A DNA stretch of 60,427 nucleotides from a virus (IMGVR_UViG_3300007734_000733:1-60427); one strand, 5' to 3'; positions 1 to 7,855 are shown, numbered from the stretch's first letter. Numbers and translations are program-made. The notes: generated by a model from the sequence alone, not told the origin.

Positions 1-127
1 ATTCCGGTGACCTTATCGCCAATATCCTCAAACGCGGCACGAAGGGCTCTGCCAAGATGCCCCGCTGAACCCGTGATGAGAACCTTACGTGCTGCCATTA
101 GAAATTCTCCATATTCCATCTATACCA
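1..127. repeat. Terminal overlap identical to 60301-60427 (circular contig)
   Basis: Exact 127-nt match between the start and end of the window. The dehydratase/SDR gene junction reads straight through it. Confidence 0.97.
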
Positions 128-1002
128 GACGGAGTTACATTTTCGGTTTCGGTGAACAACTGTTCCGTTAGTCTCTCGCCGGGGCGCAGGCCGGTTATCT
201 CAATCTCAATTTCCGTTCCAGGCGTTTTGCCTGACAGTCGGATCATGTCCCGCGCTAGGTCCATGATCTTTACAGGATGGCCCATGTCCAGAATGTAAAT
301 CGCCGGTTCCCCCGTTGCGGCTTGAAGCACTAACTCAACCGCCTCATCAATCGACATGAAGTACCGCTCCATGCTCTCATGGGTCACCGTAAGCGGTCCG
401 CCTTTAATAAGCTGGCGCTCAAATAAAGGTACAACCGAGCCGGAAGAGCCAAGTACGTTTCCGAACCGCACGGCGGTATAACGGGCACGGCGGCAAATAT
501 TCTCTGCTATTTCCTTCGTCTTACCCATGTAGCTGGTCGCATTGACGGCCTTATCAGTCGATATCAGCACCATCCGGTATACTTTGTGCCTGCTACACGC
601 CTGAACGACGTTGAGCGTGCCGGTTACGTTTGTTTTGAAAGCTTCGTTAGTATTACGCTCGACCAGCGGTACATGCTTCATCGCAGCGGCATGAAACACA
701 ACTTGCTCGCTATCGCTATACATGAAGTTCTCAACAGATTCAGCATCTCTCACATCGGCATATATGGCCGTCGCGCCGGGGAGTTGCTCGCTGATCGAGT
801 ACAGATTGAACTCACAGTTATCTACCAACACTAACTCGCTAGGCTTGAAGCTGTTGACTTGGCGAGATAGCTCCGAGCCAATAGAGCCCCCAGCGCCCGT
901 GATGACGACGCGCTTTCCGTCCAGCATCTTGCTGACGGCAGCGCGGTCACGGACTACAGCACGGCGCGGCAAAAGGTCGCCTAGATCAATGGCACGGATC
1001 AT
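85..1002 (-). CDS. UDP-GlcNAc 4,6-dehydratase, PglF/CapD/WbpM-type (catalytic domain only)
   Basis: TGAGGSIGSEL nucleotide-binding motif, HAAAMKHVP, STDKAVN..YMG.TK (Met-type triad), VRFGNVLGSSGSVVPLF, GLRPGE. Confidence 0.92.
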   Translation of the reverse strand: MIRAIDLGDLLPRRAVVRDRAAVSKMLDGKRVVITGAGGSIGSELSRQVNSFKPSELVLVDNCEFNLYSISEQLPGATAIYADVRDAESVENFMYSDSEQVVFHAAAMKHVPLVERNTNEAFKTNVTGTLNVVQACSRHKVYRMVLISTDKAVNATSYMGKTKEIAENICRRARYTAVRFGNVLGSSGSVVPLFERQLIKGGPLTVTHESMERYFMSIDEAVELVLQAATGEPAIYILDMGHPVKIMDLARDMIRLSGKTPGTEIEIEITGLRPGERLTEQLFTETENVTPSGIDGIWRISNGST

Positions 1003-1691
1003 ATTGAACGTATCTCCGCGACCATCTCGTTCAACTCGTTAGGCTCAATGCTGCAAATCTGATCCGGCCCGGCCAAGCGACGATCCAGGGTAAAGTGCTT
1101 CTCGATGACCTCCGCGCCGGAGGCCGCAGCAATGACAGATGCGGCAATGCCCTGCGTGTGGTCGGAGAAACCCACAGCTTTGAAATAGTCGGCAAGTTTT
1201 ACAAGTTTGCGAAAATCAATTTTATGAAGCGGCGTGGGGTATTGCGAAACGCAATACAGCGCCGTGTCGTCATAAGCGGCGCTGTTAAGAAACTCCCGCT
1301 CATTTGTCATACCATTGCTGACGATAAGCGGGAGCCCGGTAGCTCTTGCATACCGGACGAACGCCCTGTCCATGACCTTGCCGGAGGAAATCTTCAGGCG
1401 CTTCACACCAAGCTCAACAAGGAAATCCACCCACTCCTCGCTGAATGGCGTGGACATGAACTCGATCCCGAGTTTGTCGGCTTTCAACTTCAGCTTTTCG
1501 TGGTCATCTTTGGAAAGCTGCACGCTTCTCAGAAACGCGGTCAACTTCTCGTCGTAGCCAAGCGCGTCAGCCGTGAATGACTGGAACTTAACCGCGTCCG
1601 CGCCAGCATCCAGCGCAATATCAATCATCTTCAGCGCCCGGTCCAAAGACCCGCAGTGGTTGATCCCGGCCTCTGCAATGATAAATACCAT
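999..1691 (-). CDS. neuB: Nonulosonate (N-acetylneuraminate/legionaminate-type) synthase, lacking the C-terminal SAF/AFL domain
   Basis: IIAEAGINHCG, ADAVKFQ, FMSTPF, KISSG, CVSQYP, GFSDHT, IEKHFTLDR..GPD. Confidence 0.93.
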   Translation of the reverse strand: MVFIIAEAGINHCGSLDRALKMIDIALDAGADAVKFQSFTADALGYDEKLTAFLRSVQLSKDDHEKLKLKADKLGIEFMSTPFSEEWVDFLVELGVKRLKISSGKVMDRAFVRYARATGLPLIVSNGMTNEREFLNSAAYDDTALYCVSQYPTPLHKIDFRKLVKLADYFKAVGFSDHTQGIAASVIAAASGAEVIEKHFTLDRRLAGPDQICSIEPNELNEMVAEIRSI

Positions 1692-5529: not shown

Positions 5530-6183
5530 TCAAACGCTCCGAACAGAAGCGCCCTCGCTGAATAACCAGCTACGCAGCTTAATCGGTGATTTGTCGGTGA
5601 AGAAAAACATGGACGAAATCGCAACCGCGTCAGCCCCAGCTTTGAACGCCTGAAGCGCGTGATCCAATTTACCGCAGCCTCCGGCAACGATAACCGGAAC
5701 ATCCCATTTGCGCTTCAATACGTCCAAGTCGAATCCCTTGCCCATTCCGTCGCGGTCGATGTCCGTTAGCAAAACCTCACCCGCGTAGTCAGGCACATCT
5801 TCTACACACAAGGTGTGATAGTCAATAGGCCAGACCACCGCCTGCCGACCATATTTTTGGGCAATGGCTTTGCCAAGTTCGCGGTCTTTAACCACCACTT
5901 TATCCGCGCCGCAGTCTTTGATTAGTTCGTTCACTTGGCTCATAGAATGAATAGACCCAGCCACGGTAACGGGGGTGAACACATCGGCGGTCACATCCCG
6001 AATCATGGCTGGGTCAATTACGCCCAAGTCGCAGAAGTACATCTCATCGACACGTAGGTCTTCATATGTACGCGCCGTAGACACGACGTTACCGGCCGTT
6101 CGGCGGTTGGTCGTGAACTGCTTGTACTTAACGAGCTTGCCGTCCTCGATTAGAAACTTCGCAATGATACGGCGTTTCAGCAC
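5530..6183 (-). CDS. HisF-like TIM-barrel protein of the sugar-amidination type (WbuZ-like)
   Basis: RRIIAKFLI (HisF catalytic Asp absent), FTPVTVAG, GADKVVV, GEVLLTDIDRDG..GFD, PVIVAGGCG. Near a WbuX-type amidotransferase. Confidence 0.85.
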   Translation of the reverse strand: MLKRRIIAKFLIEDGKLVKYKQFTTNRRTAGNVVSTARTYEDLRVDEMYFCDLGVIDPAMIRDVTADVFTPVTVAGSIHSMSQVNELIKDCGADKVVVKDRELGKAIAQKYGRQAVVWPIDYHTLCVEDVPDYAGEVLLTDIDRDGMGKGFDLDVLKRKWDVPVIVAGGCGKLDHALQAFKAGADAVAISSMFFFTDKSPIKLRSWLFSEGASVRSV

Positions 6184-6722
6184 TACGGCGTCGGCCCACC
6201 CACCGGATCAACCGCACCGGCCGGTGATTGGGTCATCACCTCAGTACCGGCAGCAACCGCAACGCCAGTCGGGCTTTCGTTCATCGGGCCTTGGCAATCA
6301 GCCAGCTTCGCTCCGTTGACCTTCTTGGGTCGCACAGTACATGGAAAGCTGAACATATTGCTCATGCCACCACCAGCCGCTGTGGTTGTCGTGAACTTGC
6401 GGAACGCCGCCGGGGTATCAGCCCAAGTCGGCGCTTGCGGGAAGCTAGAGCGCGGCTGAAACAAGCTCCAGACTTGATTTTTGCCGGGAGCGGTGCAGGA
6501 GTTATTCATCAAGTCCATGTCGGCCAACGCAGGGCCGCGCAGTACGGGGCAGACCGAAACGCCCAACGGGAACACCTTGCCGTTGACGGTGATGGTCTGG
6601 CCGGGGACAGGGGTTGTGGGACTGGCCGCGCACAGGGCGAACTCGCCTGTGCAGACCTGAATTGTCAAAGCGTGCGCGGGGGCCGTAAACGTCAGCGCCG
6701 CAGCAATCAGTAGTTTTTTCAT
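6183..6722 (-). CDS. Putative secreted Cys-rich protein
   Basis: Signal peptide MKKLLIAAALTFTAPAHA with an AxA cleavage site, six Cys. Confidence 0.7.
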   Translation of the reverse strand: MKKLLIAAALTFTAPAHALTIQVCTGEFALCAASPTTPVPGQTITVNGKVFPLGVSVCPVLRGPALADMDLMNNSCTAPGKNQVWSLFQPRSSFPQAPTWADTPAAFRKFTTTTAAGGGMSNMFSFPCTVRPKKVNGAKLADCQGPMNESPTGVAVAAGTEVMTQSPAGAVDPVGGPTP

Positions 6723-7855
6723 ATCCAATCTTTCATGTCTGGAAGTTCTGAACCAGCCACAATGGCTGACTTATCAAAGTCCCACGGATCAACCACATGG
6801 CTCAAGGCCATCCCATAGAAGTCATCACGGGTAATCCCAACCGTCTGTAGAAACCACCCCAGGCTGGCCGGTTCTTTGCCGTCGTATTGCTGGGCTAAGG
6901 CGGCCCCCGCCGCCCGATCCATACGGCCATGCCGTATCTCAATGTTGGCCAGATGGTTCGTCCGGCCAAAACCGCGCTTGATGTACTTCAGCCAATCCCT
7001 AACGCCCTGGAACTGGCACTCAATCTTCTCGTAATCAAACTGCGGTGGGATGCCCTCGACCACATCACCCTCCCAGCCAAGGTGGTCCTTAATCAACGCC
7101 ACTTGATTGCGGGTGTCCCACCGCACGTAGTCGCCCAGACAGATGCTTTGAACGCCAAGCGCGTCTAACTCGGCCTTGGGCGGGTATGCGTGCCAGTGCA
7201 AATCGCGCCGGTCCAGGCTGGGGTTAGCGTCCTTAATGAACTCCCACATATCGTCAGCCGTCATGCCGAGATTCATCGCCCGGTTAAACCGCACCTCGTC
7301 AACATTCTCCTTCTCGGTGGGGTCGAGCCAGGATTGGTATTCCTTCAGTGACTCACCCCAGAATATAAGCGGCGTGTTGAACTTAAGCGCCATGTGCATG
7401 GGGAACGAGTAGACTCCCGTATGACAGTGCCAGCACGAATCGCCCTTACGGGAAAGTGCCTCCAGCATAGTGGCCTGGACGACCTTCCAGTTCGGCTTGA
7501 AGTCCAAGACTTCAACGCCCAACTGCTTGAACACCCGCGCATTGTTCTTCTCCAACTGTGGCCGAGTTCCCCAGTGATTGTACCGCACAACCAAAGGCCG
7601 CAACCGTAGCTGCGTCACCACATACCAAAGCTGGTAGGTGCTATCTTTGCCGCCGCTGAATGGCACGATGCAATCGTACTGGCCGTTGCGTTGACGAGCC
7701 TGGGTAATGATGGAGTGTAACTCCATCATGCGTTCGTTCCAGTCCACCGCCGTCAGCTTATGGTCTACCTGCACGCAGACAGAACACGCGCCAGCCGCGT
7801 TGAATGAAATGGTGTCGGCAGTCTCGGTGTTGAGACAGCGGGTGCAGGATTTCAT
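6719..7855 (-). CDS. N-acetyl sugar amidotransferase (PseA/WbuX/PtmG-type, PP-loop ATPase)
   Basis: N-terminal CxxC...CxxC, YDCIVPFSGGKDS PP-loop, CWHCH, LIFWGE, KIEC...DWLKYIKRGFGR, IRHG. Confidence 0.92.
   Translation of the reverse strand: MKSCTRCLNTETADTISFNAAGACSVCVQVDHKLTAVDWNERMMELHSIITQARQRNGQYDCIVPFSGGKDSTYQLWYVVTQLRLRPLVVRYNHWGTRPQLEKNNARVFKQLGVEVLDFKPNWKVVQATMLEALSRKGDSCWHCHTGVYSFPMHMALKFNTPLIFWGESLKEYQSWLDPTEKENVDEVRFNRAMNLGMTADDMWEFIKDANPSLDRRDLHWHAYPPKAELDALGVQSICLGDYVRWDTRNQVALIKDHLGWEGDVVEGIPPQFDYEKIECQFQGVRDWLKYIKRGFGRTNHLANIEIRHGRMDRAAGAALAQQYDGKEPASLGWFLQTVGITRDDFYGMALSHVVDPWDFDKSAIVAGSELPDMKDWI

Follow-up and report, generated by a model that had tools for sequence, protein, structure and literature searches.

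The window analysed here is the whole of the viral contig IMGVR_UViG_3300007734_000733 (60,427 bases), and the system in question is a cluster of nine sugar-pathway genes on its minus strand, just upstream of the terminase genes of a tailed phage. A preliminary description had read this cluster as a near-complete pathway to a nonulosonic acid of the legionaminic type, activated with cytidine monophosphate (CMP), and every enzyme gene that it named was recovered on the minus strand, its position agreeing exactly or to within a few bases with the one first assigned (Table 1). Read leftward from base 9145, the genes encode a methyltransferase, the amidotransferase WbuX, a secreted protein of 181 residues, a HisF-like protein, four small open reading frames (ORFs), a DegT-family aminotransferase and a hexapeptide acetyltransferase. 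These are followed by a 50-residue ORF, the CMP-nonulosonate synthetase NeuA, the synthase NeuB and a dehydratase and, across the junction of the window ends, by a short-chain dehydrogenase/reductase (SDR), the 2-epimerase NeuC, two small ORFs, the terminase subunits TerS and TerL, and the portal protein.

The window is one contig that makes up the entire assembly, and its bases 1-127 are identical to bases 60301-60427 (direct repeat D7; 127 nt, 100% identity). The assembly is circular with a unit of 60,300 bases, which places the SDR gene directly after the dehydratase gene and confirms that the cluster runs on over the window ends, as first described. The same circular molecule carries genes for a terminase large subunit (phrog_38, 333.6 bits), a portal protein, an SU10-type adaptor and a capsid-like protein, together with a primase, a helicase, RusA, Sak4, SSB, a Cas4-type exonuclease and a lysozyme, and is clearly that of a tailed phage, the TerS assignment being a weak one (17.6 bits against a cut-off of 26.1). 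From the genes alone, an adaptor match of 96.6 bits and the lack of sheath or tube matches, the phage would be labelled podovirus-type. Profile scans recognized no integrase family in the phage genome, and no tRNA genes were found in it. The G+C content of the cluster (0.53-0.57) lies inside the range of the genome (0.41-0.61). No close relative is among 50,697 deposited phage records, where megablast gave no match at all and the best TerL identity was 35%; a scan of 185,579 species genomes with TerL, aimed at the host, gave no relative, and the closest cellular NeuB proteins, at 36-46% identity, are spread across many phyla and give no pointer to it either.

The cluster recurs in nine IMG/VR contigs of different data sets, with unchanged order and beside TerS, TerL and the portal gene as far as each contig extends; only in L009 was no dehydratase match found between NeuB and the SDR. 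The ratio of nonsynonymous to synonymous substitution rates (dN/dS) was between 0.02 and 0.34 in 8 pairs for all nine enzymes and for a PglD-like gene of the relatives discussed below, and between 0.01 and 0.06 for TerS, TerL and portal; between the window and L002, using the true gene starts, it was 0.12 for the aminotransferase and 0.19 for the SDR. Near-identical DNA occurs in 20 runs, from 9 studies, that carry the labels metagenome, viral metagenome, lake water or freshwater sediment. In a lake-water run from a different study all 30 bins of bases 1-12000 are covered and a 1861-base contig spans 7408-9268, from WbuX to the methyltransferase, with zero differences, and a 5081-base contig from a viral-metagenome run continues 3305 bases beyond the window start. 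The idea that the cluster is a decaying remnant, or host DNA joined in by a chimeric assembly, would find some encouragement in the fact that several of the proteins are shorter than their bacterial counterparts, and no other support for it was found. We consider it extremely improbable, because the circular contig, the shared placement in nine contigs, the bridging contigs of other studies, the independent lake and viral metagenomes and the dN/dS values all argue against it, and the short forms are constant in length over about 80 protein clusters. The genes thus form a conserved phage-borne cluster under purifying selection. Synonymous divergence (dS) between the window and L008 is uneven along the cluster, with 0.31-0.39 for WbuX, the acetyltransferase and TerS and 1.2-2.5 for the dehydratase, the SDR, NeuC and the aminotransferase, which suggests module exchange between related phages.

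Table 1 Features of the cluster and its surroundings, with the pathway enzymes listed first.
Feature	Position	Strand	Evidence or remark
PglF-type dehydratase, soluble catalytic domain, 305 aa	85-1002	-	PF02719, 329 bits
DegT-family pyridoxal phosphate-dependent sugar 4-aminotransferase, 391 aa	3025-4200	-	PF01041, 315.6 bits
CysE/EpsC-like left-handed beta-helix acetyltransferase, 167 aa	2531-3034	-	PF00132, 30.5 bits
NeuC/LegG-type hydrolysing 2-epimerase, 318 aa	58852-59808	-	TIGR03568, 241.3 bits (cut-off 235.9)
NeuB/LegI-type synthase without SAF domain, 230 aa	999-1691	-	PF03102, 207 bits
CMP-nonulosonate synthetase, NeuA/LegF type, 232 aa	1691-2389	-	PF02348, 60.5 bits
WbuX/PseA-type N-acetyl sugar amidotransferase (PP-loop), 378 aa	6719-7855	-	TIGR03573, 320.7 bits (cut-off 203.2)
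HisF-like (WbuZ-type) barrel protein, 217 aa	5530-6183	-	PF00977, 97.1 bits
Compact SDR, 205-aa ORF	59802-60419	-	PF13561, 81.7 bits; likely start Met8 at 60398
orf181, Cys-rich, predicted secreted	6183-6728	-	Signal peptide in translation; no Pfam/NCBIfam match
orf50, small, putatively ribbon-helix-helix-like	2386-2538	-	Weak HicB C-terminal match, 19.3 bits (cut-off 27)
orf60, small, putatively ribbon-helix-helix-like, downstream of NeuC	58680-58862	-	60-71% conserved in 8 relatives
Variable cassette, small ORFs of 55, 86, 69 and 137 aa	4247-5496	-	No family matches; hairpin 4435-4458
Terminase small (57839-58339) and large (55855-57399) subunits	55855-58339	-	PF03237 and PF17289; directly downstream of cluster
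Terminal overlap	1-127		Identical to 60301-60427; circular assembly

We moderately favour the view that the nine genes make up a working, pared-down form of the bacterial pathway that proceeds through sugars linked to uridine diphosphate (UDP) to a legionaminic-type sugar, which a freshwater phage keeps as auxiliary genes and whose product is most likely meant for host glycosyltransferases. In this pathway the PglF-type dehydratase would convert host UDP-N-acetylglucosamine (UDP-GlcNAc) to UDP-4-keto-6-deoxy-GlcNAc, the DegT enzyme would aminate C4, probably in the D-gluco configuration, and the amine would be acetylated either by the CysE-like acetyltransferase or by a PglD-type enzyme of the host. 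NeuC/LegG would remove UDP and epimerise C2, the SAF-less NeuB would condense the product with phosphoenolpyruvate, and NeuA would activate the nonulosonate with cytidine triphosphate. WbuX and the HisF-like protein would turn one N-acetyl group into an acetamidino group, and the compact SDR may, in analogy to ElaC at C8, alter the configuration of a hydroxyl-bearing carbon. The activated sugar would finally be used by host glycosyltransferases and give an altered surface glycan on the infected cell. The data show which genes are present, that they are conserved under purifying selection and that they belong to a phage, and from this the chemistry of the steps, the product and its use are inferred.

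The dehydratase has PglF (PDB 5bju) as its best solved relative with 223 bits, compared to 116 bits for PseB (2gn4), and the alignment to 5bju conserves the Thr-Asp-Lys triad as well as the Met replacing the usual Tyr, so that the term “Met-type” given to it at the outset is justified. Its score against the PseB model, 160.7 bits, is below the cut-off of 407.75, and as judged from these residues and scores the enzyme is predicted to be a retaining PglF-type UDP-GlcNAc 4,6-dehydratase. The best NCBIfam names of three of the enzymes are PseB, PseC and PseF, which would suggest a pseudaminic acid pathway, but all three matches are far below their cut-offs, and there is hardly any likelihood left for such a pathway. 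The PseB Tyr is a Met in the PglF-like dehydratase, a NeuC-type epimerase is present, PseG, PseH (GNAT) and a nucleotidyltransferase were not found among the scanned proteins, and the synthase fits the NeuB/LegI model (TIGR03569, 240.6 bits) better than PseI (187.3 bits), both being below cut-off (399.65 for TIGR03569). The bacillosamine-to-legionaminic route, already preferred to the pseudaminic one in the preliminary description, is accordingly supported by the enzyme set, and the lack of a PtmE-type nucleotidyltransferase is confirmed.

The best solved relative of the aminotransferase is 7l7x (Pcryo_0638) with 266 bits, the next structure scoring 175. According to the available part of PMC8040287, kinetics and structure show that Pcryo_0638 converts UDP-4-keto-6-deoxy-GlcNAc to UDP-2-acetamido-4-amino-2,4,6-trideoxy-D-glucose, and all five residues reported there as strictly conserved are kept in the phage enzyme (the equivalents of Thr60, Asp156, Ser180, Lys185 and Asn239). 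The acetyltransferase turned out to be CysE-like and not PglD/NeuD-like: its best NCBIfam match is EpsC with 73.7 bits (cut-off 150), while NeuD/PglD reaches only 21.2. Its homologues are mostly proteins of 150-190 residues, almost all of them unnamed metagenome proteins on contigs of up to 65 kb, which is phage-sized. It may act on the 4-amino sugar as an N-acetyltransferase or, just as well, on the nonulosonate by O-acetylation. A PglD-type gene (TIGR03570, 129.6 bits against a cut-off of 160.8) is situated between the SDR and NeuC genes in five of the nine sister contigs (L001-3, L007, L008). In the window, the GTG start of NeuC overlaps the SDR stop, so there is no room for another gene at that position.

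Besides passing its NCBIfam cut-off, NeuC has as best solved relative 5xvs, the GDP/UDP-N,N'-diacetylbacillosamine 2-epimerase LegG (135.6 bits; GDP, guanosine diphosphate), and the UDP-GlcNAc enzyme GNE follows at 85.1 bits. In a NeuC tree, loci with and without an aminotransferase did not form clusters (20 changes against a shuffled mean of 23, with 31 of 500 shuffles as low), and the tree is therefore silent on the substrate. Neighbouring genes were counted within 10 kb of the 80 closest cellular NeuB loci, one of which is that of Legionella worsleiensis, and gave DegT in 57, PglD-like in 49, NeuC in 66, NeuA in 47, SDR in 24, WbuX in 19 and HisF in 20. These results bear on a scheme with two products, in which NeuC, NeuB and NeuA would make CMP-N-acetylneuraminic acid (CMP-Neu5Ac) from UDP-GlcNAc, and the dehydratase, aminotransferase, acetyltransferase, WbuX and WbuZ would make a UDP-linked diamino or acetamidino hexose. 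WbuXYZ was first tied to an acetamidino hexose, and Neu5Ac enzymes are not told apart from legionaminic ones by the NeuB and NeuC models of NCBIfam. A lake virome paper also read its gene set as one for N-acetylneuraminic acid plus other sugar genes, in the part available (10.1101/655167). We nevertheless find two products improbable, since the epimerase is closest to the diacetylbacillosamine enzyme, most of the closest cellular NeuB loci join an aminotransferase and PglD with NeuC, NeuB and NeuA, and the phage would need two host acceptor systems. The enzyme set supports a UDP-route product predicted to be of the legionaminic type, probably with an acetamidino group.

The NeuB reading frame stops at residue 230, where the next gene begins. 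Its AlphaFold model (predicted local distance difference test score, pLDDT, 94.7) has eight beta-alpha units, and the top Foldseek match is 6ncs, a SAF-less enzyme from Leptospira (template modelling score 0.92). Equivalents of E25, K53, Q55, K129, S132, Y186, H215, E234, H236 and D247 are all present, and these ten catalytic positions are invariant across 161 loci rows, save for seven Gly-for-Ser replacements and one gap among the other viral rows. The short form is represented by some 80 metagenome protein clusters of 229-246 residues, with 50-99% identity and on contigs of up to 62 kb. Cellular relatives have at most 49% identity and mostly possess the SAF domain, and the available text of PMC8208679 reports that SAF-less NeuB proteins exist in environmental bacteria. 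The best solved relative of NeuA is the CMP-Neu5Ac synthetase of N. meningitidis (1eyr, 97 bits) and its match to the PseF model is below cut-off (106.2 against 205.7 bits); it is a CMP-nonulosonate synthetase with the CTP_transf_3 fold, judged by these matches, and with a putative sugar specificity.

WbuX, whose assignment to the PseA/WbuX family holds by the curated TIGR03573 cut-off, has an invariant SGGKDS PP-loop and four invariant N-terminal Cys residues (alignment A2), and its only solved relative is 8wex. The best NCBIfam match of the HisF-like protein is WbuZ with 147.7 bits, below the cut-off of 299.7. For the SDR, 6uh2 is the best solved relative by sequence (95.9 bits) and by fold as well. 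The protein is about 55 residues shorter than its bacterial homologues, lacking one stretch of about 16-20 and another of about 36 residues. It retains an invariant Gly-rich loop along with invariant Ser94, Tyr118 and Lys122, and its model has pLDDT 83.6. Its end at 60398, as first described, corresponds to Met8, where the relatives start, and the AlphaFold confidence for residues 1-7 is below 50.

A number of observations weigh against a working legionaminic-type pathway. Only two of the nine enzymes, WbuX and NeuC, reach the curated NCBIfam cut-offs. The aminotransferase has a Val in place of Gln183 of Pcryo_0638, a residue that contacts the 2-acetamido group in the available description of that enzyme (PMC8040287), and the C4 stereochemistry is not readable from its sequence. 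The sole acetyltransferase of the genome resembles serine O-acetyltransferases, its solved relatives all being serine acetyltransferases. A PglD/LegH (NeuD-family) 4-N-acetyltransferase is not in the window, where tblastn with the sister-phage gene gave only a 28% match (E 0.003) on the CysE-like gene, and the PglD-type gene is also absent from four of the nine sister contigs (L004-6, L009). NeuB is without the C-terminal SAF (antifreeze-like) domain and its substrate-binding Arg (Arg314), and the equivalent of Glu134 is Lys105, a position occupied by Glu or Asp in 79 of 80 cellular enzymes; an Asp (Asp108) follows three residues later. The SDR is without the helix that normally bears the catalytic Asn. 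No HisH/WbuY glutaminase (class-I glutamine amidotransferase) was present in any scanned ORF, no Gfo/Idh/MocA (ElaA-type) oxidase in the genome ORFs scanned, and a Pfam scan of 27 + 35 ORFs at E 0.01 detected neither a glycosyltransferase nor a sialyltransferase. Finally, no host, acceptor or transferase was identified. The pathway is more reduced than the preliminary description supposed: it keeps the core enzymes and lacks a PglD-type 4-N-acetyltransferase, HisH and an ElaA-type oxidase.

Among the short-tailed NeuB proteins, 39 of 49 have no Glu/Asp at position 134, and 32 of those 39 have Asp or Glu at +3, while only one of 110 with a SAF-sized tail is without Glu/Asp at position 134. These counts are from the 161 loci rows, two of which run off their contig, and since the rows are related to one another, SAF loss and acid shift are to be taken as a pattern and not as a count of independent events. 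The pattern is that of SAF-less viral NeuB proteins with a putatively relocated active-site acid, from position 134 to +3.

HisH lies next to HisF in all three bacterial clusters checked, and a Gfo/Idh/MocA oxidase precedes NeuA and the SDR in one bacterial cluster; both HisH and an ElaA-like oxidase are lacking from every phage copy. The 181-residue ORF between WbuX and HisF is a secreted protein: a hidden HisH is ruled out by the signal peptide and the lack of a family match, and the Atlas placed it in virus-only hypothetical clusters. Of the relatives, L004, L007 and L008 carry this ORF; the slot is taken by another gene in L003 and is empty in L002.

The missing parts are those that a host cluster would supply (PglD in the present genome and, in every phage copy, HisH and the ElaA-like oxidase), which favours the idea that the cluster is incomplete alone and adds to a legionaminic pathway of the host, where it would boost the flux or alter the product to an amidino or epimer form and so change the receptor glycan. 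A precedent is found in the prophage genes epaA/epaB, which modify host-made pseudaminic acid according to the available part of PMC12053666. Such dependence on the host is a possibility to be kept in mind, although we believe it to be somewhat unlikely, as the core steps from dehydratase to cytidylyltransferase are all kept under purifying selection and would be redundant in such a host.

With no recognisable transferase of the phage, the activated sugar of the pared-down pathway would most likely be handed to host glycosyltransferases, and alteration of the host surface is the most economical reading of its use, decoration of the virion being a bolder one. If the sugar is intended for the virion, the activated nonulosonate would be attached to capsid or tail proteins and act in masking or adhesion. 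In accordance with this, the cluster immediately precedes the terminase genes and heads the packaging and structural operon, TerL lies just downstream in a second, distant viral lineage as well (L018, L060), and that lineage has a family-2 glycosyltransferase inside the cluster in all three loci examined. The scanned ORFs of the present genome contain no Pfam glycosyltransferase family, however, and gene order alone does not give the timing, and we regard use on the virion as unlikely. Late expression of the cluster, as first proposed, would likewise be deduced from the gene order only. Scans for promoter-like sites gave 8 in bases 1-10000 against 7.1 expected and 3 in bases 55000-60427 against 5.6 expected, with 11 terminator-like sites against 9.8 and 14 against 6.3, respectively, from which no timing is derivable. 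Pfam and PHROGs scans gave no pointer to a use of the sugar in DNA modification, and this idea was dropped.

The preliminary description had called a whole pathway in a phage of this size very unusual, which holds among deposited phage genomes and fails for viromes. In 50,697 GenBank phage records NeuB matched three, one of them a bacterial contig by name, and WbuX matched none. In IMG/VR there are at least 594 NeuB stretches (594 of the 606 pattern matches listed encode NeuB relatives), and tblastn with the window proteins showed that 8 of 73 other viral loci hold at least four further pathway genes. In a FastTree phylogeny of 162 NeuB sequences the window groups with its nine relatives in one clade (support 99), whose successive sister groups are all viral. 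Both sequence sets were picked by likeness to the phage enzyme and the inner supports are low, and the tree consequently gives only a hint that this NeuB may have a long history within viruses. Such a gene set is already in print from a lake virome: the available text of Okazaki et al. (2019; 10.1101/655167) lists neuA, neuB, neuC, capD, pseA, an aminotransferase and pglD for LBVG_26 from Lake Biwa and proposes a change of the host cell surface. The treatment there is one sentence, in which the genes are read as N-acetylneuraminic acid synthesis, with no enzyme-level analysis in that text. Our literature search found no characterised phage-encoded de novo nonulosonate pathway and no experiments on a gene set of this kind, the gene tables of 10.1101/655167, which possibly list such genomes, being outside the search. 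The gene set is thus rare in deposited phages and not rare in viromes.

To judge by these virome counts, such clusters are a class of freshwater viral auxiliary genes that has been described too little. A lytic-type 60-kb phage devotes about 8 kb, or about 13% of its genome, to one sugar, and since this investment is conserved under purifying selection the sugar must be of importance to the infection. Nonulosonic acids are mostly treated as sugars of the bacterial surface that are linked to virulence and phage receptors, and candidate uses by a phage are superinfection exclusion, keeping the progeny off debris, and decoration of the virion. In the most far-reaching interpretation, which we put forward with considerable doubt, at least two distant lineages of tailed lake phages maintain streamlined legionaminic-type pathways at the head of the packaging operon to decorate virions or rewrite the receptor glycan, and do so with virus-specific enzymes, namely a SAF-less NeuB with its acid moved three residues, a glutaminase-free amidotransferase and a minimal SDR. 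The cluster is a clonable system for asking how a phage uses an activated sialic-acid-like sugar and how small such enzymes may become, and the compact enzymes could serve in chemo-enzymatic synthesis of legionaminic acid derivatives.

Several other features of the region deserve mention. The cassette of four small ORFs between HisF and the aminotransferase is variable: contigs of other runs have different sequence in place of bases 4251-4657, and neither orf137 nor orf69 is matched in the relatives. The strong hairpin within it (10 pairs followed by a T-run) was the only feature standing out in the promoter and terminator scans. A conserved 173-residue ORF occupies the same interval in L002 (6280-6801), L003, L004, L006 and L007, and all its Atlas scores were below 0.9. 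In L008 (6929-8667) a 217-residue ORF opens with a copy of the first approximately 48 residues of the aminotransferase, and the following aminotransferase ORF is without its own first approximately 20. The small protein orf50 is 70-84% identical in all eight loci covering its position and has an N-terminal motif in common with orf60; that both might be ribbon-helix-helix-like is a lead only.

The minus-strand block, headed by an MT-A70 methyltransferase gene, extends leftward from 9145 to base 1 and continues from 60300 to about 28000. The methyltransferase gene (8438-9145) is variable, the relatives matching its first approximately 50 residues only and a contig of run X15 skipping 8438-9007. 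Between the leftward block with the methyltransferase and a rightward block with an ATPase, from 9794, a 14-base unit containing a palindrome is repeated 12.6 times in tandem (9136-9313), and this may be an origin or operator region. The gene of a DUF2201 metallopeptidase/VWA-like protein (11742-13073), with internal GGCCAG-type repeats at 12228-12362, has as neighbours a MoxR-like AAA ATPase (9794-10831) and a 295-residue ORF without assignment. After the DUF2201 gene follow dense tandem arrays of 7, 14 and 77 bases (13128-13498 and 13819-13922) that are apparently non-coding. A 339-residue ORF after the portal gene (52380-53399) has its first 48 residues 91% conserved in L002 and L003, the remainder being diverged or rearranged among relatives, and may encode a variable head or fibre protein.

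Among the known systems close to the cluster are the bacterial UDP-route clusters, for instance those of Legionella worsleiensis (L096), Ramlibacter (L117) and a Pseudomonadota metagenome-assembled genome (L088), which contain the same families: PglF-type dehydratase, DegT, NeuC/LegG, NeuB/LegI, NeuA, SDR, WbuX and HisF. The bacterial clusters differ by having in addition HisH, a Gfo/Idh/MocA oxidase and a PglD-type acetyltransferase, a NeuB with SAF domain, and another gene order, and the identity between phage and bacterial proteins is at most 46% (NeuB) to 51% (dehydratase), with 47% for WbuX in one gammaproteobacterial metagenome-assembled genome. LBVG_26 has a similar gene list and is likened here by the genes listed in the available text alone, not by sequence. 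With the WbuX/WbuY/WbuZ system the phage shares a WbuX above its curated cut-off and an adjacent HisF-like partner, whereas WbuY/HisH is missing both here and in the second viral lineage. In the ElaABC system of Acinetobacter baumannii KL49 a cytidylyltransferase is paired with an adh_short_C2 SDR, as in the phage, the ElaA-ElaB-ElaC arrangement serves C8 epimerisation, and 6uh2 was the search model used in solving ElaC, according to the available part of PMC13656337. Unlike that system, the phage has neither an ElaA-type oxidase nor an aldo-keto reductase, and its SDR is the shorter one by about 55 residues. The prophage genes epaA/epaB, as far as the available text goes (PMC12053666), are likewise nonulosonate-modifying genes carried by a phage, but they are two modifiers and not a de novo pathway. 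The second viral lineage (L018, L041, L060; 57-60 kb) shares with the present phage a short NeuB, NeuC, NeuA, a WbuX above cut-off and a HisF without HisH, and its cluster is also located upstream of TerL, which lies just downstream in two of the three loci. It differs in having a GDP-type route with LegB-like and LegC-like enzymes and a nucleotidyltransferase, and it carries in addition a radical SAM/SPASM protein, a methyltransferase, the family-2 glycosyltransferase mentioned above and interspersed HNH genes.

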